Notes under the pieces: generated by a model
Told to the model about the DNA's origin: nothing
The model's input: the letters and a program-made list of their open reading frames with translations, nothing else
The model's database searches: none
Part shown: positions 1 to 11,069 of the stretch, piece after piece
Layout of the letters: each line of letters opens with the position of its first letter
Numbering within the stretch: position 1 is the first letter of the stretch
Assembly: GCA_019057635.1 (NCBI GenBank)
Contig: DXJL01000032.1
Coordinates: forward strand, 1 to 11,069
Direction: 5' to 3'
DNA from: Candidatus Heimdallarchaeota archaeon
GTDB taxonomy: Archaea; Asgardarchaeota; Heimdallarchaeia; Hodarchaeales; Hodarchaeaceae
Length of the DNA: 11,069 nucleotides
Program-made: the position numbers and the translations under genes

Positions 1-1
1 A

Positions 2-343
2 GATAGGAACATTTGGTTCATAACGATGCGCAGAAGCATTGGAAAAAACTTGTTTTCCATTTTGAGCCATTTCTAACTCAATTTCTTTTGCCATTGATGC
101 AGGGAGTGCACTAAATACTATATCATAACTATCGGGGGTTAAATTACTAAGTGAATTTAATTTTAAATTAGAAAACATATCTGGAATGTCAAATGACGGT
201 AATTTCCATTTACTCTTGAGTGATTGCCCCTCTGATTTTTCTGATGCTACTACTTCTGTTAATTCAAAATATGGGTGTGTCTCTAAAAGTCGTACAAATT
301 GCTGTCCTATTAATCCTGCCCCTAATATAACGCAACGTTTCAA
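2..343 (-). CDS. asd: Aspartate-semialdehyde dehydrogenase, archaeal type (5' part; runs off the window edge)
   Basis: Not in the ORF track. Manual translation from TTG at 343, with GGAG just upstream, gives MKRCVILGAGLIGQQFVRLLETHPYFELTEVVASEKSEG...DIVFSALP...VFSNASAHRYEPNVPI. The Rossmann motif, HPYFEL, DIVFSALP and SNASAHR are ASADH signatures. Confidence 0.92.
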   Translation of the reverse strand, partial: MKRCVILGAGLIGQQFVRLLETHPYFELTEVVASEKSEGQSLKSKWKLPSFDIPDMFSNLKLNSLSNLTPDSYDIVFSALPASMAKEIELEMAQNGKQVFSNASAHRYEPNVPI

Positions 344-520
344 TTGTTGTACTCCTATCTTTAAGTTATTTAGCTTAATTCAATACGACTAGTTCCTAGT
401 ACAGATACTTAAATTAACACTTTTGTCTTCTACTTAAATGGGGTGAATTTTTGCCTATTAAAGAACTTTTTCCAGTATCGAAAAGTTACAATTTTTCCTA
501 ACGAAGAGTTTTTTGGAATT

Positions 521-529
521 AAAAAAAAA
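521..529 (-). terminator. Possible oligo-U terminator after the asparagine synthetase gene
   Basis: A9 on the + strand (U9 on the - strand) about 35 nt past the stop codon at 563. Confidence 0.3.
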
Positions 530-562
530 TTTTGGCAGATCTTTGGTTGAGATCACGATTCC

Positions 563-1513
563 TTAAAATTCTACCTTTTCACCTGGTAATTTGGGAAATA
601 AAGTTACATCTTTGATATGCTTTCTTTTAGTTAAAAACCTGATAAGTCGTTCTATTCCAAGACCTCCTCCAGCACTGGGTACTAATAAAGCTTTTTTAGC
701 TAGATCTAGATGAAGTTCAAAAGCTTTAAGGTCTTGATTTCGCTCCTTAATCTTCTTTACCAGAATATTATGTTCATATTCCCGTTCTCCACCAGAGAGA
801 GCTTCTTCAAACCCATAAGGATAATAGAGGTCATAATTGATATAGTGTCCTTTCTTATCTGGATCTTCTTTGTCATAGAATTCTCTTTCAAAATCAGTTA
901 TCCAGAAAGGATCTTTCTCCTGAAGTGATATCTGTTTTCCATATTCATTCCCAAATTCTTTTTTTAAGTCCCAGCTTCGATATACTTTGAAAGGTTTCTT
1001 AGGTACTCGGATTTTGATACCATCTTTTTCCAGTTCTGCTCCATAAGAATTCTTAACTTTTTTTATTATGGAAATAATTAAATCCTCCATTAATGACATG
1101 AATTCGTGTGCAGATGTGTTCCTCATCTCAATATCCAGCTGTGTAAATTCCAGTAAATGCTTTCCGCTGGTTTTCAGCTCACTTAGTTCCAAACGTATGT
1201 TTGGGGATAGTACATAAATCCCTTCACATCCTAATGCTGCAATAGCAAGTTGTTTATGGAAAATCATACTTTTTGTCAATTGGAGATCTTGACCCAAATA
1301 TTTAATTTGTGGTTCATGAACAGAATGGCATAAGGGATCAGTAATTTGAGATAAAATCACGGGCATCAATTGAATGAAGTCCTTGTTATGAAAGAAGTCA
1401 TTAATAGCTTGTAGTGCCACAGTTTGTACTTTTAATGTCTGTAACATTTGTGTGTCTAATTTTAGTGTTGTAAGCTTTGATTGAGATGCTAATTTACTCA
1501 TCATTGATTTCAC
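563..1513 (-). CDS. asnA: Archaeal-type asparagine synthetase A (AsnRS paralog lacking the anticodon-binding domain)
   Basis: 316-aa class IIb aaRS catalytic core only: ITDPL, LTKSMIFHKQ, SPNIRLE, HLLEFTQLDIE, REFYD, NYDL, SGGEREYE, PSAGGGLGIERLIRFL. The start may be GTG 1513 or ATG 1504/1501. Confidence 0.88.
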   Translation of the reverse strand: MKSMMSKLASQSKLTTLKLDTQMLQTLKVQTVALQAINDFFHNKDFIQLMPVILSQITDPLCHSVHEPQIKYLGQDLQLTKSMIFHKQLAIAALGCEGIYVLSPNIRLELSELKTSGKHLLEFTQLDIEMRNTSAHEFMSLMEDLIISIIKKVKNSYGAELEKDGIKIRVPKKPFKVYRSWDLKKEFGNEYGKQISLQEKDPFWITDFEREFYDKEDPDKKGHYINYDLYYPYGFEEALSGGEREYEHNILVKKIKERNQDLKAFELHLDLAKKALLVPSAGGGLGIERLIRFLTKRKHIKDVTLFPKLPGEKVEF

Positions 1514-1627
1514 AGCTATATTTTTTATTATAGAATGGAGTATATTACCTTCAAATTATTCGCTATATGAGAGTATTGAGATAAAAACGGGATATTTCAA
1601 CAAGAATGAGTACTGTTTTAACATATA

Positions 1628-2086
1628 ATGGAATGTTCTACCCATATGGATAAAACCAATATAAAAATCATTAAAGCCCTTGAGCAAAATTCTCGTTTAT
1701 CTACAAATGATATTTGGAAAATAACTGGGATTCCTCAAACCACAGCCTACAATCGAATAAAAAAGTTGAAAGAAGAAGGAATTATTGAAAAATTCACCAT
1801 AAAACTCAACAAGAAGAAAATTGGAAAGGGGTTGGCCGCGTATATTCTCTGTACTGTTTCCTACCGTACAACAAAGGGAGAAAAATTAAGTCAAATTAAT
1901 GTTGCAAAGGGAGTGAAAGCAATGTCTGAAGTTGAAGATGTTTCAATTGTAACTGGTGAACTTGATCTTATTGTAAAGGTTGCTGTGGAAGATGTAGATA
2001 CGTTGAATGATTTTATTGTTAATAAATTGAGAGATGTTGAAGGCATTGAAAAAACAGTAACTTGCGTTGTTCTTTCAGAGGTTTAG
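1628..2086 (+). CDS. Lrp/AsnC family transcriptional regulator
   Basis: N-terminal HTH (MDKTNIKIIKALEQNSR...TAYNRIKKLKEEGIIEKFT) and C-terminal RAM domain (VTGELDLIVKV...GIEKTVT). The true start may be ATG 1646. Confidence 0.93.
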   Translation: MECSTHMDKTNIKIIKALEQNSRLSTNDIWKITGIPQTTAYNRIKKLKEEGIIEKFTIKLNKKKIGKGLAAYILCTVSYRTTKGEKLSQINVAKGVKAMSEVEDVSIVTGELDLIVKVAVEDVDTLNDFIVNKLRDVEGIEKTVTCVVLSEV

Positions 2087-2347
2087 GAGAAGAAGATTAT
2101 TAATAGTGTATTGACCATCCACGAGAGAATCTTTCTATCTCAAGAAAGAAAAATAAATTTAGTCCTTGCAAAGGCAATGATTCTCACATGAGAAGACACC
2201 ACAAACGCCATCTCCTTCCATAATTCATAGTTTTGAGTTTCTACTTCCTTTGGTAATATTATCCATGGTAATTGCTTATAGAAAGAAAAAATTAGATCAC
2301 CTAGGACAAAAATGAAGACAATACCATTTCCAATTGGAGCTCATTCT

Positions 2348-2398
2348 GTGTAGAAAGCCATGAATATACTTATCTAATCTAAACGAGCCTTTTACGGA
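2348..2398 (+). repeat. Module-boundary repeat, copy A (degenerate left arm)
   Basis: GT-GTAGAAA-GCCATG-AATATAC-TTATCTA-ATCTAAACGAGCC-TTTT-ACGGA; 39/51 identical to copy C by manual alignment. Confidence 0.8.
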
Positions 2399-2562
2399 GT
2401 TGGAGCACTCTTATCGCTTAATCAGCATATTGTTTCTAGATCGAATCCAAAAATAAGATTATGGCCAAAGTCAATAGTATCCCCCACTTAGGTTATAATC
2501 TTAGTTTTCAATATTTAATGAGTAATTCTACAAATTGTCATCGGTAAGGGACTTTTTTTCAA

Positions 2563-2820
2563 TTGCTACGATATGCTGAGCCTAGGGATTTTGATGGTGA
2601 TGGTAAATTTGATGCAACTGCATGGCAGTTTTATCATATTTTTGGACCAGAAGACCTCACATCTGGAGACCATACATTTGATATCGGTTTTTATGTGAAA
2701 AATTCCTTATGGATGTTTGGGATGGGGGATTATTCTTGGTCAGAATGGACATCCATATGGTACAGAGATTACGTAGATCCTCCCTATGATGTTCAATCTC
2801 TTATAATACGTATTGTATAG
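2563..2820 (+). pseudogene. Probable 3' fragment of a secreted or surface protein with a DxDxDG Ca-binding-like loop
   Basis: 85-aa ORF with a TTG start and an in-frame TAA at 2545. Contains DFDGDGKFD and aromatic beta-rich sequence, and is followed by a terminator. Could instead be a small intact gene. Confidence 0.45.
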
Positions 2821-2884
2821 ACCCAACCTACCAAAATTAGATACTCTTTGAGGAATCTACACAACTCCCATGCACTTCACTTCT

Positions 2885-2916
2885 AGGGATCCTTGAAAAG
2901 GATTCCTCCTTTTTTT
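2885..2916 (+). terminator. Hairpin plus T-tract terminator
   Basis: AGGGATCCTT-GAA-AAGGATTCCT forms a 10-bp stem with one G-U pair, followed by T7 at 2910-2916. It lies between convergent ORFs. Confidence 0.6.
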
Positions 2917-3013
2917 ATGCTTTATTTACTCCAATCTATTGAGTATTCTCGTATTTGTTAAAAAACTGATTTAATTCTTGATTCGTGAGAGTCTTTTATT
3001 TCTAGTTATATAT

Positions 3014-3505
3014 TTACGAACCAGCTCGTTTCCAAAGGATATATCCGAGAAGAGCGGAAATAGCGAATGCTGATATTTGATCTAGCGCGTAAACAGCAAG
3101 TAATGGTACTTCAAAGATTAAAGCGGGAATATTATTTGTAGCAGTAAATCCAAAATCGAGAATTAAGTGAGAGAACCATGCAATAGCTATAGGTGATAGT
3201 GACCAAAAGTGATCTTTTGCCATTTCCCGCCGAGGAAGGAATATTATCACTAAGTATATGCCTGAAGTAATTGCAACTAAAAGTGGAAGTATTGGGTTAT
3301 GCCAGAACCCACGATGAGAAAAGAGATAGTCTAGTGTCGGATTTCCTGTCTCAACATTAATTATTGCCCAAATCCCATCAATATCAGGGATAATCCCCGC
3401 AAAAGCCCCTAAAACTAGGGTCTTCAAACGATCCTTTTCATCCCAGTGATAAAAAGGGATAGCTATCAGTAATGCAACAAAAAAATGAGTAGAATAACCA
3501 GGCAT
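3014..3505 (-). CDS. YdjM/DUF457-like membrane-bound metal-dependent hydrolase
   Basis: Motifs TH, PDID, HRGFWH and SHLILD with several hydrophobic helices. ATG 3505 (MPGYSTH) is preferred over TTG 3514. Confidence 0.85.
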   Translation of the reverse strand: MPGYSTHFFVALLIAIPFYHWDEKDRLKTLVLGAFAGIIPDIDGIWAIINVETGNPTLDYLFSHRGFWHNPILPLLVAITSGIYLVIIFLPRREMAKDHFWSLSPIAIAWFSHLILDFGFTATNNIPALIFEVPLLAVYALDQISAFAISALLGYILWKRAGS

Positions 3506-3684
3506 TTTTCTCAACCTAACCGATCTTTCTTTTAGATCACTTGTAATAACTAATTCTTCTGATATTGGTAGAAGCTATGATGTGGATTTTCATATTTATA
3601 TATCCTTCTTGTTCTATTCTTTCACTTTTCAACGTGAAGTTACTTATTAATTTCTTGATCCCTTTTCTAGATATGTATGAATGA

Positions 3685-3736
3685 GGGTATATAACCCTAG
3701 GATATACTTTTGTAATCTAAACCAGCCATGGACGAC
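3685..3736 (+). repeat. Module-boundary repeat, copy B
   Basis: GG-GTATATA-ACCCTAG-GATATAC-TTTTGTA-ATCTAAACCAGCC-ATGG-ACGAC; 45/51 identical to copy C plus a 1-nt insertion. Confidence 0.92.
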
Positions 3737-3997
3737 GTTCGTGTCAATATTTCATTCAACATTTTGATATTTTTGAAGAAGAAGAACGAGTTATTTATTG
3801 TTGAATATATTCTTGAATTAATTTAATGTTTTTCATTGAAATTGTCTTTTTCTGGTTCTCTTCAGAAAAACCTTGAAATAATCTGCAATTGAATAAATAT
3901 TAACCGATAAAATGGTTCCCATTCTTAGTGGTATATTCGCAAATCTGTAAATTACACAATAGGCAAATCTGTTCAAACGCAAAACACTTATTAGTCG

Positions 3998-4029
3998 TTG
4001 TCTTACAATTCACCCGTTTTGTCTTACAA
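3998..4029. promoter_or_regulatory. Candidate NikR operator just downstream of a TATA-like element (TTATTA, 3988-3993)
   Basis: TTGTCTTACAA occurs twice, 21 bp apart (3998-4008, 4019-4029). It reads GTCTTA-N16-TCTTAC, against the E. coli NikR operator GTATGA-N16-TCATAC. nikR is in the same operon. Confidence 0.65.
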
Positions 4030-4063
4030 ATGAAAATTCCCATATATGAAAGGCGTAGAAGAA

Positions 4064-4747
4064 ATGCATATACCTGATGGTTGGGTTGATCCTTTTTTCT
4101 TAATAATCACTTGGGGCGTAACAATTATCGTTATTATGACTAGTATTAGAAAAATGAAAGATATTGATGAAACTCGGTTAACTTACATGGCAGTTCTTGC
4201 AGGAACTATTTTTGCTGCTCAAATGTTGAACTTTCCGATTCTTGGCGGCACTTCTGGGCATCTTTTAGGAGGTGCTCTTGCTGCGTCAATTGTAGGTGCA
4301 TGGGGTGGGTGTCTAGTCATCTCTGTGGTTTTAATCATTCAGGCATTCCTTTTTGCGGATGGTGGGATAATTGCCCTAGGAGCCAATATTTTTAATATGG
4401 CTATTGTTGGAGTTTTTGTTGCCTATCTAATTTTACGTTTTTTTATGTTCAATTCTTCTCCCAAAGATCGATATCGATACTATGGAGGAGTGTTCTTAGG
4501 TTCCTTCCTCTCAGTAATAATAGCTTCCGTTTTTGCAGCAATAGAAATAGGAATTCCAGTAATAAATAGTGTTTCACAGGTAAAATTGGTTGATTCCTTC
4601 TTGATAATTGTATTCTATCATGTACTGATTGGGATTGGAGAGGGGATAATTACACTCATCATTGTGAGTTATTTCAATACCATTCAAATGAATATTTTTC
4701 TTGAGGTTGACAATCCCTCACTTACTTACAATTTTTCCAAAAGGTAA
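4064..4747 (+). CDS. cbiM: ECF Ni/Co transporter substrate-binding component NikM/CbiM
   Basis: MHIPDG N-terminus (the metal-binding Met1-His2 puts the start at 4064, not 4046), FAAQMLNFP, GTSGHLLGG, QAFLFADGG, ALGANIFNM, IGIGEGIIT. Confidence 0.93.
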   Translation: MHIPDGWVDPFFLIITWGVTIIVIMTSIRKMKDIDETRLTYMAVLAGTIFAAQMLNFPILGGTSGHLLGGALAASIVGAWGGCLVISVVLIIQAFLFADGGIIALGANIFNMAIVGVFVAYLILRFFMFNSSPKDRYRYYGGVFLGSFLSVIIASVFAAIEIGIPVINSVSQVKLVDSFLIIVFYHVLIGIGEGIITLIIVSYFNTIQMNIFLEVDNPSLTYNFSKR

Positions 4748-4753
4748 TATAAT

Positions 4754-5053
4754 ATGGAGAATCGTTCGAAAATTTTGATTGGATCAATATTTATTGTCAT
4801 TCTTATGGTAGTTTTAAGTCCTTTTGCTGATCCAAATCCCGATGGTTTAGAAAGCGCGGCTGGGGAGGGCCACTACAATGGAAGTGCGTTTGATTTAGGA
4901 TTCTTAACCGATTATGGATCTGAAGACTCACTAATTCATCAATTCCTCCAGAATGACATGATAGCAACCATTGTTTCTGGTTTAATTGGTATTTTTGTAG
5001 TTGTTGGTCTATTCAGTCTACCTCTTATAATCTTACGATTAAAAAAAGAGTAA
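4754..5053 (+). CDS. PDGLE-domain NikN-like ECF accessory subunit
   Basis: Two TM helices flanking a loop with SPFADPNPDGLE and DY; lies between the M and Q genes. Confidence 0.88.
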   Translation: MENRSKILIGSIFIVILMVVLSPFADPNPDGLESAAGEGHYNGSAFDLGFLTDYGSEDSLIHQFLQNDMIATIVSGLIGIFVVVGLFSLPLIILRLKKE

Positions 5054-5060
5054 TTCTCAA

Positions 5061-5858
5061 ATGACAGATAAACACCATCACTATGTCGCACTAGGGGCTC
5101 CGAAACAAGTATTAGATATTAGGAGCAAGCTTCTCGGACTAGTTCTTATTGTCCTTGGATGTTCTTTCCTAGTTGATATCTCTCAAGTCTCTTGGTATGC
5201 AATTCTTCTTCTCCTTCTCCTCCTTATTTTAAGGCCGCGCAAGACATTTTTAAAACAAATTGTTTTAACACTCCCTTTGATCCTTTCATTATCACTCATC
5301 TCATTCTTTTCGTTCGATCCTCCATCTTTTAGCAATTTTTTGTACGAAACCACACATACTAAGGGCTCTTTTGCGTTTTTTACTGCTTTTCGTAGCATTG
5401 TAATTGTCTCCTCCATCTTGGTGATCGTTAGTTCTGAGGAGTCATTTTTCGAAATTATTTACGGATTAGATGATCTAAAACTTCCAGGGTTACTGACAAA
5501 CTTGTTATTTTTAACCTATCGTTTTTTTAGTCTTATCCAAGAGGAATTTTCACGAATTTTAGATGCTCGTTCGAATCGAATGTATAGTGAGAGTTCTATC
5601 ATGCAGTTAAGATCATTAAAACTTATCGGAAACATTTTAGGCGCCTCACTGGCACGATCGTTTAAACGCGCTGAATACATTTCAGCTTCGTTGTCTGCAA
5701 GAGGTTTTTCAGGCACTAGTAAATTCTCTCATCCTGAAAAACCATGGACACGAAGTGGTTTCTTATTTGTTATCTTTGCAATAATTGTCAACATTTTCAT
5801 TGGATTGTATGGACAGATTTCGCCTCTTGATTTGGTTGTAGGATGGTTATCACCATGA
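5061..5858 (+). CDS. cbiQ: ECF transporter T component NikQ/CbiQ
   Basis: LDIRSKL, multiple TM helices, LKLP...LTYRF, ARSNR, RSFKRAE...LSARGF (conserved Ala-Arg-Gly motifs). Confidence 0.9.
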   Translation: MTDKHHHYVALGAPKQVLDIRSKLLGLVLIVLGCSFLVDISQVSWYAILLLLLLLILRPRKTFLKQIVLTLPLILSLSLISFFSFDPPSFSNFLYETTHTKGSFAFFTAFRSIVIVSSILVIVSSEESFFEIIYGLDDLKLPGLLTNLLFLTYRFFSLIQEEFSRILDARSNRMYSESSIMQLRSLKLIGNILGASLARSFKRAEYISASLSARGFSGTSKFSHPEKPWTRSGFLFVIFAIIVNIFIGLYGQISPLDLVVGWLSP

Positions 5859-6565
5859 AATTGGATGTAGAATACGCTTTAAGTGTACATAATTTGAGTT
5901 ATAAATACGCGAAAAACCAGCCTGAGGTTTTGAGGAACATTTCTGTTAATTTTCCTCCTCACAAAATCACAGCTATTGTCGGGCCAAATGGATCAGGTAA
6001 GACTACTCTATTAAAGCATTTTAATGGCCTTTTTTTGGCTCAAAATGGTGAAATCTTCGTAAACGGCCAAGTTCTAAATAAGAAAACCCGTAAAACCATT
6101 CAAAAACAGATTGGCATTGTTTTTCAAAATCCTGATGAACAAATTTTTTATCCTAACGTTTATGATGATGTAGCATTTGGCCCGAGGAATATGAACTTGA
6201 GTCTAGCTGAAATTCAAGAAAGAGTCGCTCAAGCCGGAAAAGCGGCACAGATCTCACATTTAATGGATCGAATTACCTTCAATTTGTCCTTTGGAGAAAA
6301 AAAGAAAGTAGCGTTTGCTGGTATCTTAGCAATGCGACCTGAGATACTGGTATTAGATGAACCCACCATCGGTATAGATCCATGGTCAAAAGATCATTTT
6401 ATTTCTCTCATCAGGTCTTTTAGCCCTGAAAAAACAGTGATAGTAATAACCCATGATTTTGAAATAATGAAATCCGTCGATTACATTATACTTATAAAAG
6501 AAGGAGAAGTAAAGGGTAGGTATACTAACTTTAACTCCTTTTGGCAGGAAGAGTTTGCTAGTTAA
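5855..6565 (+). CDS. cbiO: ECF transporter ATPase NikO/CbiO
   Basis: Walker A GPNGSGKTT, Q-loop VFQNPDEQ, signature LSFGEKKK, Walker B LVLDEP, H-loop ITHD. ATG 5855 overlaps the cbiQ stop (ATGA); alternative start at 5843. Confidence 0.93.
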   Translation: MKLDVEYALSVHNLSYKYAKNQPEVLRNISVNFPPHKITAIVGPNGSGKTTLLKHFNGLFLAQNGEIFVNGQVLNKKTRKTIQKQIGIVFQNPDEQIFYPNVYDDVAFGPRNMNLSLAEIQERVAQAGKAAQISHLMDRITFNLSFGEKKKVAFAGILAMRPEILVLDEPTIGIDPWSKDHFISLIRSFSPEKTVIVITHDFEIMKSVDYIILIKEGEVKGRYTNFNSFWQEEFAS

Positions 6566-6574
6566 GGTGATTTA

Positions 6575-6991
6575 ATGACTTTAAAAGAAATTCGTGAGAC
6601 AATTACTTTCTCTTGTGATCCTCTATTCAAAAAATTACTATCTACGAAAATGAAAGATTTTGGATATCAAACGAAATCTCAAATGATAAGGGATGCACTT
6701 CAGTCCTTTTTCGATTCAGAAAAGATGTTAGAGAGGGCTTCTGATACTGATATGATCGTGACGTTGATTTCAGTTGTTTACGATCATCATGATTCAACTA
6801 CACTTGAAGAATATTTGCGTGTACAACATCAATCTAATGTAGCCTTCTCTTCACATTTTCATCTGCCCTCTGGTGAATGTATTGAAATTTTAATGATAAA
6901 CGATCAGGTGAAAAACGTTAAAAAGCTAATTCAAGAGTTACGTGGCATTAATGGCTTGAAAAATATATCTTATAGATTAAACCAAGTTTAG
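6575..6991 (+). CDS. nikR: Nickel-responsive regulator NikR (RHH plus ACT-like metal-binding domain)
   Basis: RHH (TITFS...KSQMIRDAL), YDHH, and the Ni-ligand pattern QH...HFHLPSGEC (H-x-H-x5-C). Confidence 0.85.
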   Translation: MTLKEIRETITFSCDPLFKKLLSTKMKDFGYQTKSQMIRDALQSFFDSEKMLERASDTDMIVTLISVVYDHHDSTTLEEYLRVQHQSNVAFSSHFHLPSGECIEILMINDQVKNVKKLIQELRGINGLKNISYRLNQV

Positions 6992-7099
6992 CTTAGGTGG
7001 ATGATTTTATATTTACCGTTCTTTTTGAAAGCAATCGATCCAGATTATTCTACTGAAGTAAAAAATGTATTTAAGTTGTTGTTTCATTAATTCAACGGT

Positions 7100-7150
7100 G
7101 GGTATATACCCTAGTATATACTTTTCCAATCTAAACCAGCCTTTTACGAC
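7100..7150 (+). repeat. Module-boundary repeat, copy C (perfect 7-6-7 inverted core)
   Basis: GG-GTATATA-CCCTAG-TATATAC-TTTTCCA-ATCTAAACCAGCC-TTTT-ACGAC; one base separates it from the HEPN stop codon at 7152. Confidence 0.92.
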
Positions 7151-7151
7151 A

Positions 7152-7514
7152 CTAATCTATTTCGGTAGTGCTATTTTCAAGTTCAAGGGAAATCTGCTGA
7201 AATACCTTTTTTAATGGGGGAAGCAATTCAGAGACAGTATTCCAAATAAGCTCTAATCTCACACCAAAATAAGCATGAATCAATTTATCTCGCATTCCAG
7301 TCATTGATTTCCAAGGAACTTCTGGATGTTTTTTGCGTATGGATTCTGGAATATTCTTTGTTGCTTCTCCAATGATTTCTAATGCTCGAACAACGGCAAA
7401 TTCAGTTTTCTTATCTTTGACGAAATCGTTATAATCCATCCCTTTAATGAATTCTGATATATTAGCTATATTAATCGTAATATCATTAATATAATCTATA
7501 TAAGTTCTTTTCAA
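7152..7514 (-). CDS. HEPN (DUF86/HepT-like) RNase toxin
   Basis: AVVRALEIIGEA, HPEVPW, and RDKLIHAY (R-x4-H-x-Y). The TTG start overlaps the MNT stop (TTGA). Confidence 0.92.
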   Translation of the reverse strand: MKRTYIDYINDITINIANISEFIKGMDYNDFVKDKKTEFAVVRALEIIGEATKNIPESIRKKHPEVPWKSMTGMRDKLIHAYFGVRLELIWNTVSELLPPLKKVFQQISLELENSTTEID

Positions 7515-7804
7515 ACATAAATAACTTCCTTCAGTATCTGTTTGCCGATATGAGGTTTCAAGGTATCCTTCATTACGAGATCAACCTTTATCCCTAGCTT
7601 TTCAGAAAGGTATTGTTCTAAATCGATAAACGCTAGTAGATCGATAGAAAGATCAACAGTGACAAGAATGTCTAAATCACTGTTTTTTTCCATTTCTCTC
7701 CTGACATAAGAACCAAAAATTCCAATTTCTATCACTTTGTACTCTTCTCTAAGGTATTCTAGTTCGTTTTTTATCCTTTCTTTTATTTCCGAGATTTCGA
7801 GCAT
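7511..7804 (-). CDS. Minimal nucleotidyltransferase (MNT/MntA-like) antitoxin
   Basis: IFGSYVRREMEKNSDLDILV (GS-x10-DxD) and KVDLV; translationally coupled to the HEPN gene. Confidence 0.93.
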   Translation of the reverse strand: MLEISEIKERIKNELEYLREEYKVIEIGIFGSYVRREMEKNSDLDILVTVDLSIDLLAFIDLEQYLSEKLGIKVDLVMKDTLKPHIGKQILKEVIYV

Positions 7805-7987
7805 TTTTTGTCCTCATGAATTCAAAGTTTCTTATTACAACATCAATTAACTCAATCTTTTATAAATACTTTTTATGTTATCCTTTTGATATTAAGTTCT
7901 ACTTAACTTATTGCCCTATTTTTTTGGGTAGCTACTTTTTTCCTATCTAAACATAGAGCTAGATCTTAATTACCTGAATATCAAACG

Positions 7988-8032
7988 CTAGGATATCAAC
8001 AATGTTGTTGATATATTCACTAGGATGTCAAC
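7988..8032. repeat. Inverted repeat with flanking direct repeats, upstream of the TA operon
   Basis: ATATCAACAA-TG-TTGTTGATAT (7993-8014), plus CTAGGATATCAAC (7988-8000) and CTAGGATGTCAAC (8020-8032). Confidence 0.6.
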
Positions 8033-8084
8033 TATTTTCTTTCAAGAATGTAGGATTGCATTGGGGAATTAGTCGGTGTTACTG

Positions 8085-8135
8085 ACATATATACCTCGGT
8101 ATACACGTTTCTTATCTAAACCAGCCTTTGACGAT
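8085..8135 (+). repeat. Module-boundary repeat, copy D
   Basis: AC-ATATATA-CCTCGG-TATACAC-GTTTCTT-ATCTAAACCAGCC-TTTG-ACGAT; 39/51 identical to copy C. Confidence 0.88.
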
Positions 8136-8296
8136 ATTGAACTTAGGAATTAACGAAAGGATATTAAATCAAAAATCTCAATCACCCATAAATTAAGTCT
8201 TTTCTAACCACATCAAGGAGATGTCAATTGTCTTCATTTTCTTCAAAGGGAAAAATTGCTCATCAAAGATTAGACTAGACCTTAGAGGAGAGGAAT

Positions 8297-9082
8297 TTAG
8301 TGCAAAATCATCGACGCTCCGATTAAAGCAAAATCTTCTGAAATTCTTGATACATCACGACGTAAACCATCAAGGTAGACTTCATTTTTCCATTTTTTGG
8401 GAAAAATTTCCAAAAGGTTGGGTTTAATTCTCTGAATACCCGGGATATTCTCCTCATATATGCTATTTGTAGATTCTAATGCGATTTCATTCACAAAGAT
8501 ATTATTAAAAAATTCACAAATGAGAACTCTCATAGGTGCAGGAGAGTAGTAAAATTCTTCTTTTTTTTCCGTTGCTTTTCTTAACATAACCAATGGTTCC
8601 TTGAGTGGAAAAACGAGTTGTGTTAATATTTTACCTCGCTCAAAAGCTTGACGACTTTGTCCTGCATAATCTTCTTGAACTTGTAATGCATTAAAAGAGA
8701 ACTCTAGGAGATTATCACCCGAAATCATGAAATCATTGAAAGGAGGAAACACGAATGGTTCTGTATTGAAGTGGTTATTGAGCCATTTTTCCTCTGGAAT
8801 GACAAGACCAGTTAAATACCTATTATCTGTTGTTATTTTCTTTCCCAAAGAGAATTTAGTCCAATATATCCCTACTCCATGAAGTAAGATATATGAAAGA
8901 TTATAAAGTATCAAACGTGAAAAATCCACAGGAATAAAAATGACACTGGAAGTTTTAATGGATTCAACGTCTTGATTCTTATAAAACCACTTGATATCTG
9001 CCTGCTTGTCAGGATCAGCAAAGGAAATCCAATCTGATATTACGACTAATGATCTTAACAGTCCTAAAGGTTGCCTTCTCAT
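8297..9082 (-). CDS. Hypothetical protein (261 aa, soluble)
   Basis: Long ATG-started ORF in AT-rich DNA; no family recognised. Confidence 0.75.
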   Translation of the reverse strand: MRRQPLGLLRSLVVISDWISFADPDKQADIKWFYKNQDVESIKTSSVIFIPVDFSRLILYNLSYILLHGVGIYWTKFSLGKKITTDNRYLTGLVIPEEKWLNNHFNTEPFVFPPFNDFMISGDNLLEFSFNALQVQEDYAGQSRQAFERGKILTQLVFPLKEPLVMLRKATEKKEEFYYSPAPMRVLICEFFNNIFVNEIALESTNSIYEENIPGIQRIKPNLLEIFPKKWKNEVYLDGLRRDVSRISEDFALIGASMILH

Positions 9083-9372
9083 TTTAACTCAGCTTTTTAA
9101 ACATCTAAACTAAGAAAGTTCTTCTAATTATATAGATTAGCTTTGTCGATATATATCCTTGAGTATTAGATATTCGGGTAAGTTTCACTTTCTATGAGCC
9201 CACAGTGTGGTTATTTCTCAGTCAGGATTGAAAAGATCCCGAACTCTTTTTTTAAAGGGTTATTTGACAAATTCAGTCATGAACACTTATGTAGAAGACT
9301 TCTTTCTTCTCTTATTCTTCATATAATATCTCCAACTCTTAGTCATGTCACTTTTGTATTACAATTGATTAT

Positions 9373-9861
9373 ATGAGGGGATGTTCCAACAATATCAAAG
9401 AAAGTGTAATTCAAGAATACTTACATAATAAAAATGTCTTGGATGTGAATGCTACGGCCCCCCAAAAACAGATAATCATTGAAAAAGCCGAGCTTAAAGA
9501 ATTAAAGATGTATTCTGAAACTTCTGAAACGAGTATCAAGGTAATTTGGCAGATCCTCAAGCTAATGCAAGAAGAGCTGGGCTTACCAAGAAACATGTCA
9601 ATTAAAGATCTTAATTTACTCTATATAAGGCTGGAAGAGGTGAAAAAGGCCTTAGATCTTCAGGTCATGAATTTCAGTCAGCTGAACCAATTAAATTTTG
9701 AGATATTAAAATTACAAGAAATTATGAATTTTTCTGATGAGACTCCAATATCAACCATAATTACTGAACTTTCAGAAGAAAAACTGGTCAATCTAGGAAG
9801 AGACTCGCTTCTCGGGAAAATAATTCTTTTTAATCAGCTTAAATTAAAAACCGATGAATAA
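9373..9861 (+). CDS. Hypothetical alpha-helical protein (162 aa)
   Basis: L/E/K/Q/N-rich ORF divergent from 8297-9082; no family recognised. Confidence 0.65.
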   Translation: MRGCSNNIKESVIQEYLHNKNVLDVNATAPQKQIIIEKAELKELKMYSETSETSIKVIWQILKLMQEELGLPRNMSIKDLNLLYIRLEEVKKALDLQVMNFSQLNQLNFEILKLQEIMNFSDETPISTIITELSEEKLVNLGRDSLLGKIILFNQLKLKTDE

Positions 9862-10039
9862 TCATTGTAAGCATGTCAATTCATCTCTTTAAATCCCTTA
9901 TTTCACAATGGGTGCTAGGTCTAGATATTTTTCCAAGCTCTAAAATAAAAATTGTTTCATTATCTCCAAACTAACCAATGATGTTGCATTTCTAGTAGAA
10001 TGATACCGTGAGAACGGGTATTTTTATCTATTATATTTT

Positions 10040-10180
10040 TCAGGACCCTTTCATTTTCTCGACAGATTTCAATTCTAGCGGTTTAATGACAATTTCACCC
10101 TTATATTTTAGATATTTTACAGTTTCACTCAAAATTCTTCGATCGCAGGCATCTGGTGTTATTTTTCTTTCATCCACCAT
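10040..10180 (-). CDS. Possible small protein (46 aa)
   Basis: Manual translation MVDERKITPDACDRRILSETVKYLKYKGEIVIKPLELKSVEKMKGS, with GAGG upstream; too short to appear in the ORF track. Confidence 0.35.
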   Translation of the reverse strand: MVDERKITPDACDRRILSETVKYLKYKGEIVIKPLELKSVEKMKGS

Positions 10181-10685
10181 TGTAAATATTCCTCATTAGT
10201 TACAGCTATGAATCCCAATTTTAAAAAGATCTGAATAATTTAACTGTATATCTACACGCGAATTGTATCGAAATTTCGTTCGCTATTCTAATCAGTAGTC
10301 TGTTTTTAATTGTTCAGTATTCTCTTGAATAAGAGAATCCTACATCAATTCTAATAAACAAACGTACATTAGAAATTGTGGTCTCAAAAATCGTCCGCAT
10401 GTTAAATTTCCCCGCAATACTACTCCACTAGCACGACCAGCTGAATATATCAATGCTCACATTGCCGATTATACCAGATATTAGAGAACCAGATGTATAA
10501 GTAAGAATCCTAAACAGTACACCAATTACAAAGAGATGTATAAAGAAATAACCAATAAAATGATATATTTTATCTCACATTCTTTGCTTTCTTTTCGCAG
10601 GAATTCTAATTCTAGCAAGTGTCAAAAAGAGATTGAATTTAAGAGATTTTATTTCATCCTTTATTGGTTCGTAGGCTGGTATATA

Positions 10686-10912
10686 CCGTTCTGAAAGACT
10701 TACCCAACTAGGACAGTTAGGAATAATTTGGAAAGATAATTCTTAACTATCTTTGGAGCTGTTCTTCCTGATTCAGCGACGCGAGCCTGCATTAATGCAG
10801 GTCTTACCGCCTCTCCACAGGCGTTTATGGTCTCCGCAGAACTCTCGGCGACAGGAAAGACACATGGCTTTCCTGATTGACTAGCAGCTTTTCTTCTTAT
10901 AAACCTACTAAG
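10686..10912 (-). mobile_element. Non-autonomous IS607/TnpB-family remnant (omega-RNA-like scaffold plus right end)
   Basis: GC-richer structured island. The minus strand reads CCGAGAGTTCTGCGG..AACGCCTGTGGAGAGGCGGTAAGACC..GTCGCTGAATCAGGAA..TGTCCTAGTTGGGTAAGTCTTTCAGAACGG and translates as INACGEAVRP, typical of TnpB C-terminal tails. It ends in GG as IS607 elements do. The left boundary is uncertain. Confidence 0.65.
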
Positions 10913-11069
10913 CCCTGTAATCGAAAACAAATTTGCTGGTTTCCCGTTATTCTAATATCAAGAGGTTATATAGCGCGTCATTTTAGATATAATCCCATGA
11001 GATCGGTTGAACACTCTGTTAATCATATATTTTAATCTCTACCCCCTTCTCCTAAGATATCCGGCCTTC

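Follow-up and report, generated by a model that had tools for sequence, protein, structure and literature searches.

Co-oriented intergenic sites delimit gene cassettes in one genus of Asgard archaea, in what looks like a previously undescribed gene-cassette recombination system

The window, by which we mean the whole 11,069-nucleotide stretch of DNA analysed here, comes from an Asgard archaeon, in agreement with the archaeal host named in the original prediction. Its left flank (2..2086) carries the N-terminal part of asd (2-343, minus strand), a class II aaRS-like/AsnA-like gene (563-1513, minus strand) and an AsnC/Lrp regulator (1628-2086, plus strand). This flank is followed by four copies of a repeat, sites A to D, all on the plus strand and all of the full type (F) described below. 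Site A (2345..2402; nhmmer E 4.7e-12) is degenerate: its core ATCTAAACGAGCC, which ends at 2389, has one mismatch, the left TATATA arm is missing, and the right half is TTTTACGGAGTTG. Site B (3683..3740), whose CCAGCC box ends at 3727, has a right half of the ATGGACGACGTTCG family that travels with the nik cassette. Site C (7097..7154, box ending at 7141) is canonical, reading GGTATATACC-CTA-GTATATAC-TTTTCCA-ATCTAAACCAGCC-TTTTACGACA, and its profile score of 62.1 bits is the second-best match of the genus. The box of site D (8082..8139) ends at 8126.

Cassette 1 (2390..3727) contains an 85-aa ORF (2563-2820, plus strand) without Pfam match and a YdjM-family membrane protein gene (3014-3514, minus strand), and ends in the left half of site B; contig C97, from the same assembly, has a 96%-identical YdjM copy behind another site. 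Cassette 2, the nik cassette (3728..7141, plus strand), is an ECF-type Ni/Co transporter operon encoding CbiM (4046-4747), a PDGLE/CbiN-like protein (4754-5053), CbiQ (5061-5858), an ABC ATPase (5843-6565) and NikR (6575-6991), and ends in the left half of site C. Cassette 3 (7142..8126, minus strand) encodes a HepT/HEPN toxin (7152-7514) and an MNT nucleotidyltransferase antitoxin (7511-7804) and ends in the left half of site D; contig G003:C109 contains a stretch with 84% identity to its coding part (7297-7817). The right half of site C ends at the stop of the HEPN gene, as had been noted earlier for this copy. Cassette 4 (8127..10684), a region that continues into the reverse complement of contig C142, carries a 261-aa ORF (8297-9082, minus strand) and a 162-aa ORF (9373-9861, plus strand), neither with a Pfam or PADLOC match. 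Its end is formed by the left arm of the next F site. An insertion starting at 10685 splits that site between the two TATATA arms, and the window holds the left part of this insertion (10685..11069). The inserted element is a 477-bp, multi-copy deletion derivative of a 1.66-kb TnpB-encoding element, its other copies have unrelated flanks, and on a contig of run X2 window position 10680 is joined directly to an F-site left half. This element is outside the cassette system. The suggestion that copy A marks where a housekeeping block ends is not generally valid: a complete asd, 89% identical to the asd part of the left flank, lies inside an array on C97, where sites flank an aspartate kinase-asd pair on both sides.

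A repeat search placed the four copies in one direct-repeat family, in register at 2351, 3689, 7103 and 8088, with start-to-start distances of 1338, 3414 and 985 bp and identities to copy C of 68% (A), 71% (B) and 79% (D). With at most one mismatch, ATCTAAACCAGCCNNNNACG matched the window four times, always on the plus strand (2377, 3715, 7129 and 8114), and gave no match in 200 dinucleotide-preserving shuffles of the window. All four copies fall between predicted ORFs. These results bear out the claim of four same-strand, strictly intergenic copies, and confirm that the repeat is genuine. It is part of a larger family. The window genome (G000) has 17 clear copies on three of its 214 contigs (all copies lie on three to four), on one strand per contig, and the genus-wide map comprises 156 sites on 39 contigs from MAGs named Hodarchaeota or Heimdallarchaeota. 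The strict pattern was present in 18 of the 21 other genomes of the genus and in none of 39 genomes from other genera of the class, while a reversed control pattern gave two matches across the 61 genomes, showing that the site is restricted to one genus of Asgard archaea. Site strand was uniform in 26 of 28 genus contigs with at least two strong copies and in five of six multi-site metagenome loci. Two genomes count against an array: the closed genome G010 has few sites, two of them oppositely oriented, and sites are decaying in G004:C78.

The site is ~55 bp long, with a largely conserved stretch of ~34-55 bp around the invariant, asymmetric box CCAGCC, and its invariant portion across the genus is TATATAC-TTTT-N3-ATCTAAACCAGCC plus ~12 nt of the right half. 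Two left halves lead into this box, the full type (GGTATATACC-N3-)GTATATAC-TTTT-N3-ATCTAAA and a short type (P) ..TTTT-N-GGTGTTAAT; F and P sites have just ~20-34 nt in common. Among 117 aligned sites, per-position conservation was 85-93% in CCAGCC and 85-98% in ATCTAAA, with unconstrained positions alongside. The earlier consensus fits B, C and D but does not hold genus-wide, where its left arm GGTATATA (up to two mismatches) is found in just 56 of 124 full sites. That optional arm, together with the lack of the TATATA dyad in P sites (31 of 156), speaks against GTATATA-N6-TATATAC as a tyrosine-recombinase core, and exchange maps not to the dyad but ~20 nt downstream, in AA(A/T)CCAGCC. The box is flanked by TAAA and TTTA, and the arms are otherwise not inverted.

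The repeat delimits cassettes, as had been predicted, and the 118 site-to-site intervals have a median length of 1421 bp (range 61-12519 bp), 83 of them with one or two ORFs. A CRISPR array, in which short regular repeats have spacers of 25-50 bp, was rejected on the spacing, which runs from 985 to 3414 bp in the window and from 61 to 12519 bp across the genus, and on the genes in the intervals. Cassette genes lie on either strand relative to the site (124 plus, 105 minus), and so do the first genes of cassettes (52 plus, 55 minus). The cargo, which is typical of cassette arrays, includes MNT/HEPN and PIN/VapBC pairs, the Ni/Co transporter operon, catalase, glyoxalase, DinB, EndoV, methyltransferases, and TPR and LRR proteins. 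There are also gene-less mini-cassettes of 61-109 nt that consist of a right half and a left half, and one such 63-nt unit is present twice in G020:C123. P-type left halves recur several times within single arrays. G000, G020 and G004 are syntenic to the right of the array, which suggests that the chromosomal locus is fixed and its content varies.

Comparison between species showed that cassettes change neighbours. The nik cassette was found at 81-90% identity in G020:C163, G018:C220 and G002:C84, with different neighbours in the four genomes, so that gene content is not kept across the repeats in relatives, as had been anticipated. In the clearest cases, homology extends across the downstream site's left half and breaks off at CCAGCC, while the upstream site has either of two unrelated left halves. 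For the DinB cassette, 68 of 70 positions are identical between G006:C115 and G012:C47 up to and through the downstream box, and identity is lost past +5; the upstream site is of type F in one genome and P in the other, with identical right halves. Similarly, the upstream site of the VapBC cassette is F in G000:C97 and P in G018:C220, and those of the catalase cassette are P, F and F. Right halves from +1 travel with the downstream cassette, placing the exchange upstream of +1 to +5. These results show that cassettes own their half-sites, as integron cassettes do, and that in the clearest cases the change of neighbour falls at the box.

Ends of homology were enriched near the sites. Of 197 ends, 13 had a site no more than 25 nt away in each partner, against 0.04 expected and a maximum of two in 300 random placements, and 39 lay within 150 nt, against 1.9 expected. 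However, the remaining 184 of 197 ends lacked a site this close (25 nt) in one or both partners, which counts against an array; the expectation that synteny would break exactly at the repeat thus held for the clearest cases and this excess, but not for most ends. In G020 and G002, homology of the nik cassette ends at the nikR stop and not at a site; the C97/C207 variants differ 218 and 550 nt from the site; and a strain in run X2 has no counterpart of window 8186-9264, neither edge of which has a site. Excised circles or empty-site junctions, a search for which had been suggested, were not seen in public (Logan) contigs, in which rare forms are invisible. Two joints in Logan contigs that appeared to go back on themselves are explained by other site copies and by the TnpB-derived insertion.

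We propose, with a probability of roughly 0.55, that the locus is a site-specific cassette array with double-stranded sites and a recombinase supplied in trans. Each cassette would comprise a right half-site (the ~12-22 nt that follow CCAGCC), a single gene or a small number of genes on either strand, and a left half-site. Strand exchange would take place on double-stranded DNA in or beside CCAGCC, two co-oriented sites would release a cassette as a circle, and the circle could re-enter at any site. The cassette anatomy, the co-orientation, the confinement to one genus, the half-site ownership and the changes of neighbour at the box are seen directly in the genomes; we infer that catalysis is site-specific, that the intermediates are circular and that XerA may be the enzyme.

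The recombinase would be encoded outside the array. As had been expected, there is none nearby: tblastn with XerA detected no recombinase gene on the 39 array contigs, 19 metagenome loci and contig C144 (16 of 18 control loci were detected), and the sole PF00589 match on the array contigs is a broken, divergent tyrosine recombinase gene in G013:C160, 1.3 kb upstream of the first site. No site adjoins any non-Xer integrase of the genus. XerA was matched in 19 of the 22 genomes (E about 1e-45 to 1e-48), and no other recombinase is found in nearly all of them. In the window genome it is the sole PF00589 gene, a 316-aa ORF on G000:C157 that matches NF040815 recomb_XerA_Arch with 270 bits (cut-off 220) and PDB 4a8e with E 1.4e-60. 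Chromosomal XerA is thus the most economical candidate for the enzyme. A dif site was searched for in the genus and not found. In archaeal dif, a spacer of 6-8 bp separates two 11-bp arms that are imperfect inverted copies of each other (PMC2958812), and PMC11840125 gives TAA-N6-8-TTA as the Xer/dif hallmark. Judged by eye against the T. kodakarensis dif as printed, the arms flanking CCAGCC appear weakly inverted (TAAA/TTTA), unlike archaeal dif (PMC2958812). With arms barely inverted, the site does not seem to fit an 11-6-11 dif, in line with the original prediction that the fit is not clean.

The alternative that survives best, which we consider unlikely, is that the repeat is a protein-binding or architectural element, such as a silencer, an insulator or a nucleoid-protein site, without a recombinase of its own, and that shuffling is a by-product of homologous recombination or homology-assisted exchange between copies. 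No recombinase is linked to the arrays and many rearrangements of the island lie away from the sites, both of which this explanation would accommodate. It would also produce the F/P joints where they are found, because F and P share just ~20-34 nt and any mechanism, homologous recombination included, would force the joint into this sole shared stretch. Moreover, the F left half carries TATA-box-like palindromes ~25 nt upstream of the box, which would match the layout of archaeal promoters, and solo dyads adjoin ordinary genes (for example at G000:C20:44964). However, the flanking genes have no preferred orientation (++ 39, -- 34, +- 32, -+ 19), so the element does not generally act as a promoter or terminator. 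Binding has no need of strict co-orientation across tens of kb, but excisive recombination does; half-site ownership and gene-less mini-cassettes would be unexpected of an operator; and an invariant, asymmetric box of 6 nt next to unconstrained positions is what a crossover region typically looks like.

We regard it as improbable that mobile elements integrated one after another, site-specifically, at a single chromosomal target, leaving duplicated attachment sites (att scars), and have since decayed to one or two genes. Tandem integration does yield direct repeats that face the same way and hybrid sites in which the arm varies, the array is at a fixed locus, and a broken recombinase gene lies near the first site of G013:C160. 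Against this, the other 38 array contigs have no integrase remnant, the 118 intervals are short and mostly hold one or two ORFs, and the cargo consists of metabolic, stress or toxin-antitoxin genes, not of replication or virion genes. P left halves occur several times per array, not once at an end. In IMG/VR viral contigs, two exact-pattern scans gave 25 loci with just one weak profile match (E 0.009), and the site was not found.

A MITE or transposon end spread through the intergenic regions of the island is less probable again. The repeat is short, intergenic and multi-copy, the site accompanies EndoV orthologues in two species but not in two more, and a TnpB-derived element lies inside one site; but the unrelated flanks of that element's other copies dissociate it from the repeat, and a decayed remnant is visible where the site seemed absent (G004:C78). 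Copies are confined to few contigs and to one strand of each, the 55-bp unit has neither terminal inverted repeats nor target duplications around it and nothing conserved upstream of its left arm, and no Y1/HUH transposase was found in G000. Among 104 inter-genome homology blocks, there was no clean insertion allele of the 55-bp unit with target duplication.

attC sites have RYYYAAC and GTTRRRY core sites at their ends and cross over at G|TT. According to PMC9668308, archaeal integrons are enriched in Asgard genomes, mostly as CALINs. A classical integron or CALIN of this kind would share the array architecture, the toxin-antitoxin-rich cargo and the AAC...GTT triplets flanking the box, but is very hard to reconcile with sites that do not fold: 123 F and 30 P sites (-50..+45) had no consensus pairs on either strand (RNAalifold; mean z -0.34), and the window copies folded as top-strand ssDNA with z of +1.45, -2.03, -1.52 and +0.44, with just the short TATATA dyad pairing. 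AAC and GTT are 14 nt apart without paired L''/L' arms between them, the consensus ATCTAAAC carries an extra A, GTT at +10..+12 is conserved at 53-75% with next bases unlike RRRY, and the exchange point lies before +1, not at G|TT. Gene orientation is unbiased, where the ORFs of integron cassettes mostly face one way and lack promoters, Rfam gave no match at the sites, and attC can be set aside together with CRISPR, as originally predicted. No IntI was found on the array contigs; the absence of a linked IntI also fits a CALIN.

A broader version of the proposed cassette array, to which we would give slightly less than even odds, is a Hodarchaeales-type capture-and-shuffling platform independent of integrons, with asymmetric dsDNA sites, a CCAGCC crossover box and XerA or a new-family recombinase acting in trans, by which multi-gene cassettes with putative promoters of their own would be excised, exchanged and re-inserted. 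To our knowledge, no system other than the integron is well understood that keeps single genes as cassettes and reshuffles them, and integrons rely on a folded attC and a dedicated IntI. If correct, the proposal would add a second, structurally unrelated answer to the integron problem, from a lineage placed near eukaryotes in recent phylogenies; the same logic would use a different site, no linked integrase and multi-gene cassettes, and cassette platforms would have arisen more than once. It would also provide a concrete mechanism for the high gene flux and uptake of bacterial genes reported in Asgard archaea. If XerA is the enzyme, Xer-dependent gene mobility would extend from bacterial plasmids to archaeal chromosomes. 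With so short a site and such sharp limits to it, the content of cassettes can be read directly from marine-sediment metagenomes, and recombination would be testable in vitro.

Among known systems, tandem att arrays of the archaeal pNOB8 or SSV type (PMC8371274) resemble these arrays in their direct co-oriented repeats, hybrid arms and fixed chromosomal locus. Unlike in those arrays, the units here have one or two ordinary genes and no integrase genes or split halves, and the site lies outside tRNA genes. Acinetobacter pdif modules and IMEX elements are likewise bounded by short double-stranded sites, commonly carry TA pairs and adaptive genes, and are moved by a chromosomal recombinase encoded elsewhere, as the single XerA of the window genome might do. 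pdif modules are located on plasmids and have flanking sites in alternating orientation, and the arms of the present site are barely inverted. A parallel in architecture exists with sedentary chromosomal integrons and CALINs, which are bacterial and, according to PMC9668308, also archaeal: co-oriented sites at one chromosomal locus, small cassettes each ending in its own site with the neighbour changing at the site, accessory cargo rich in toxin-antitoxin pairs, sites more alike within a lineage, and many arrays without a linked integrase. Their site, however, is a folded imperfect palindrome, whereas the one here is an unstructured, largely conserved stretch of ~34-55 bp with CCAGCC, and the cassettes here often hold two to five genes on either strand with putative promoters of their own and would be exchanged in the box rather than at G|TT.

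A repeat search of the window identified a single direct-repeat family with four copies in register, starting at 2351, 3689, 7103 and 8088 (sites A to D), among which A was the degenerate one. The pattern ATCTAAACCAGCCNNNNACG (20 positions, at most one mismatch) matched the window four times, every time on the plus strand, and gave no match in 200 shuffles of the window. All four copies were flanked by ORFs and none was contained in one. The ORF family assignments agreed with the contents that the original prediction had given for the enclosed units, namely an 85-aa ORF and a YdjM-family protein in the first, CbiM, PDGLE, CbiQ, an ABC ATPase and NikR in the second (the nik cassette, between B and C), and a HepT/HEPN-MNT pair in the third. 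PADLOC returned no match for the four ORFs without an assigned family.

The repeat that had been noticed in the window held and was found to reach much further. We scanned the host assembly (G000; 3.19 Mb, 214 contigs, 36% G+C) with the 13-nt core, allowing two mismatches, and obtained 91 matches, of which only 17 carried the extended repeat. These copies were located on three contigs, C97 (8 copies), C142 (5) and C207, which is the window (4), with every copy of a contig on one strand. A sequence-only model trained on 16 copies gave 19 matches in this genome, and between 0 and 21 copies per genome across the genus. The strict pattern was present in 18 of 21 other genomes of the same genus and was absent from all 39 genomes examined in 12 other genera of the class, while a reversed control pattern matched twice across all 61 genomes. 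Among named GTDB contigs, with titles listed for 80 of the 111 loci, multi-copy profile-confirmed loci came from MAGs whose titles read Candidatus Hodarchaeota, Hodarchaeum mangrovi or Heimdallarchaeota, isolated profile-confirmed matches from one Promethearchaeota-titled and one Thorarchaeota-titled MAG, and the bacterial matches were bare chance matches of the core. The site was present in 19 of 119 metagenome loci picked up by the exact pattern; it was not found in IMG/VR viral contigs, where exact-pattern matches were due to chance.

We then mapped 156 sites on 39 array contigs of 16 genomes. Conservation covered GTATATAC-TTTT-N3-ATCTAAA-CCAGCC and, after it, a right half of about 12 nt (TTTKACGRAGTT); ATCTAAACCAGCC was conserved at 85-98% per position and the adjoining positions were free. 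Besides this full type of left half (F), a short type (P, 31 sites) carried ..TTTT-N-GGTGTTAAT in its place and shared CCAGCC and its right halves with the F sites. The right-half families reached 20 nt or more (TTTKACGGAGTTGG.GAAAAAA, TTTTACGGAGTTCAGA.., ATGGACGACGTTCG..AAT and TTTTACGACA..). Overlap with an ORF of at least 70 aa was absent from 148 of the 156 sites, and all copies lay on a single strand in 26 of the 28 contigs having at least two strong copies, the strand-mixed exceptions being contig C97 of genome G003 and the closed genome G010. An additional GTATATAC arm 4 nt upstream was found, within 2 mismatches, in 56 of the 124 F sites, and no conserved box was identified upstream of this left arm when 47 sites were compared. 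Deviations in one arm of the TATATA dyad were compensated as an inverted repeat 59 times versus mirrored as a direct repeat 62 times, and the left arm was absent from 68 F sites; both results speak against the dyad as a hairpin or a recombinase core.

A variant site of G000 on C144 (875-930, locus L180), a small contig rich in toxin-antitoxin genes (PIN-like and HEPN/MNT) and one of the 19 model matches, has an F left half that is normal through ATCTAA, TGGTGCGAGG in place of ACCAGCCATG, and a normal GACGACGTTC right half; it is possibly a site that has mutated, or else a second core type. At 44964-44983 of contig C20, outside the arrays and with ordinary housekeeping genes on either side, a solo GTATATAC-N4-ATATATAC dyad leads into an F-like tail that has diverged.

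A multi-copy element has one of its ends at the right end of the window and the other at the right end of C142, and a contig from another sample joined an F-site left half directly to window position 10680. Because of the shared element ends and this junction, the window most probably runs on into the reverse complement of C142, and the two joined contigs would make one array with at least nine sites. The element is 477 bp long (window 10685-11069, the rest at 18117-18188 of C142 on the reverse strand) and lies here inside an F site, separating its two TATATA arms; the flanks of the element's other copies are unrelated. A blastn search of G000 returned 33 HSPs for it, of which 9 span nearly its full length, and it derives by deletion from an element of 1.66 kb (contig C152, 3625-5286) whose minus-strand ORF carries a Cas12f1-like/TnpB TNB domain. 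Downstream of the TnpB ORF, at the expected position of a guide-RNA scaffold, window 10760-10870 is rich in G+C and probably structured; it had no match in Rfam. The left part of the window also exists in a second version on C97 (locus L001), which matches window 1-482 and 2939-3425: asd is 89% and YdjM 96% identical, and the intervening DNA differs, with a DDE transposase and a 274-aa ORF where the window has asnA-asnC. Several further contig ends of G000 overlap at 91-97% identity. This duplication and the overlapping ends suggest co-assembled strains rather than true paralogy.

The 118 intervals had a median length of 1421 bp (range 61-12519 bp), and 83 of them contained one or two ORFs. 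Their cargo included MNT/HEPN and PIN/VapBC pairs, TPR and LRR proteins, catalase, glyoxalase, DinB, ICMT/PEMT and SAM methyltransferases, AAT-type hydrolases, EndoV, ADH, enoyl-CoA hydratase, histidine kinase, aspartate kinase with asd, and the Ni/Co transporter operon; the families conserved in the arrays were ordinary enzymes throughout. Five arrays also contained gene-less units of 61-109 nt, made up of one right and one left half, and one such unit of 63 nt was present twice on contig C123 of genome G020. On contig C84 of genome G002 (loci L120 and L121), an asd fragment at 29219-30052 directly follows the nik operon within the array and is 96% identical to the asd on C97 of G000. Such array copies of asd may be cassette cargo or pseudogenes, not the housekeeping gene. 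Relative to the site, 124 genes were on the plus and 105 on the minus strand, and the flanking genes were arranged as ++ (39), -- (34), +- (32) and -+ (19). Since all four arrangements occur, the element is not generally a promoter or terminator, a role that the orientation counts contradict as well.

All-against-all blastn of the oriented arrays yielded 104 homology blocks of at least 200 bp between different genomes. The window's nik cassette was 81-90% identical to those on C163 of G020, C220 of genome G018 and C84 of G002, with different neighbours every time. Where a recurring cassette had a new downstream neighbour, identity spanned the left half and CCAGCC of the downstream site and collapsed within a few bases; the DinB cassette matched at 68 of 70 positions up to the box and identity was gone after +5, and the ABC-transporter and nik cassettes followed the same pattern. 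Where the upstream neighbour was new, homology began 9-19 nt before the end of the box. In the VapBC, DinB and catalase cassettes, the type of the upstream left half (F or P) differed between genomes, and the right half was identical. These limits indicate that the right half opening a cassette and the left half closing it both belong to that cassette, and they place the putative exchange point at AA(A/T)CCAGCC. The tyrosine-recombinase dyad of the original prediction is thus not the active part, given this position and the frequent lack of the left arm. Moreover, 13 of 197 homology ends were no more than 25 nt from a site in each of the two partners (random expectation 0.04, maximum 2 in 300 trials), and 39 of 197 within 150 nt (1.9 expected). 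The right flank of the array was common to G000, G020 and G004, and the left flank, a gelsolin-repeat gene, to G002 and G004; as judged from these shared flanks, the comparison points to a fixed chromosomal locus. This gene encodes a 118-aa protein (PF00626, E 2e-6; C84 of G002, 15045-15401, and C78 of G004, 1340-1696) and is the last conserved gene ahead of the first site in the two species, placing a eukaryote-like signature at the array edge.

Other results spoke against site-specific exchange. The remaining 184 of the 197 homology ends lacked a site at 25 nt or closer in at least one partner. The nik block in G020 and G002 stops at the nikR stop codon, not at a site, and in G002 adjoins the asd fragment; the C97 and C207 variants part 218 and 550 nt downstream of their sites. 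In a contig of public sequencing run X2, window 8186-9264 was missing and replaced by 16 other letters with no site at either edge; the stretch is a presence/absence polymorphism without bounding sites. Its 261-aa ORF had no Pfam or PADLOC match and is conserved in G018 and G004. EndoV had sites on both sides in two species; in a third, just one side had a site, of non-F type, and on C78 of G004 there was only a decayed site remnant. There, 12000-17300 (locus L137) is a fossil array in which a methyltransferase, EndoV and glyoxalase, cassettes elsewhere, stand side by side, separated by decayed site remnants alone; downstream of EndoV the right half is kept and the CCAGCC box is lost. Public short Logan contigs contained no circle or empty-site junction without another explanation: a joint 7151>3694 and loose ends at 7105 and 7153 were due to the C142 site copy mapping onto site C, and loose ends at 7148-7151 in runs X2 and X4 may be other site copies. 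Homologous recombination would also be expected to place F/P joints at the box, the only region that F and P have in common. Site anatomy and comparative genomics together support the reading as a cassette array.

We infer the catalytic mechanism and the identity of the enzyme. The single PF00589 gene of G000 is XerA (NF040815, 270 bits against a cut-off of 220; P. abyssi XerA 4a8e, E 1.4e-60), and the same type occurs in 19 of 22 genomes of the genus. The array contigs carried no tyrosine recombinase except a broken one, the sole recombinase remnant on any of them: a divergent gene with internal stop codons on contig C160 of genome G013 (1602-2037, locus L143), 1.3 kb upstream of the first of two sites. 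A tblastn search with XerA found nothing on the 39 array contigs, 19 metagenome loci and C144, and detected 16 of 18 control loci. No site lay beside any other integrase of the genus. Serine recombinases, two in G000, occurred in 8 of 22 genomes, several site-rich ones lacking them, and none was on an array contig; a Y1/HUH transposase search of G000 was negative. A dif search with a palindromic left arm gave as many matches as its reversed control, and a candidate from the palindromic-arm list was conserved in two genomes only. An 11-N-11 inverted-repeat scan of G000 gave 8 dif candidates, and the two checked were common only to the nearest relative. By elimination only, XerA is a candidate enzyme.

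CRISPR was excluded by spacing, a MITE by the confinement to few contigs and the absence of terminal repeats or duplications, a tRNA-linked att site by a window search that found no tRNA, and a known RNA family by Rfam, which up to E 1 gave just one weak, unrelated snoRNA match (window 9829-9892). According to PMC9668308, integrons are enriched in Asgard MAGs. The present site fails as an integron attC on structure, core motifs, crossover position, unbiased gene orientation and missing IntI. RNAalifold found no pairs on either strand of 123 F and 30 P sites (mean z-score -0.3), and the window copies folded as single-stranded DNA gave z from +1.45 to -2.03, with pairing confined to the short dyad. 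The T. kodakarensis dif, as given in PMC11840125, resembles the site by eye only and was not counted as evidence. The 6-nt box of the present site, invariant, asymmetric and bordered by TAAA and TTTA, looks like the overlap region of a tyrosine recombinase; the arms are otherwise not inverted. Outside subscription journals, the literature searched described neither this repeat nor any cassette array of Asgard archaea built on sites other than attC. The array is probably a kind of gene-cassette array, and may have arisen independently, with XerA or an unrecognised enzyme serving it.
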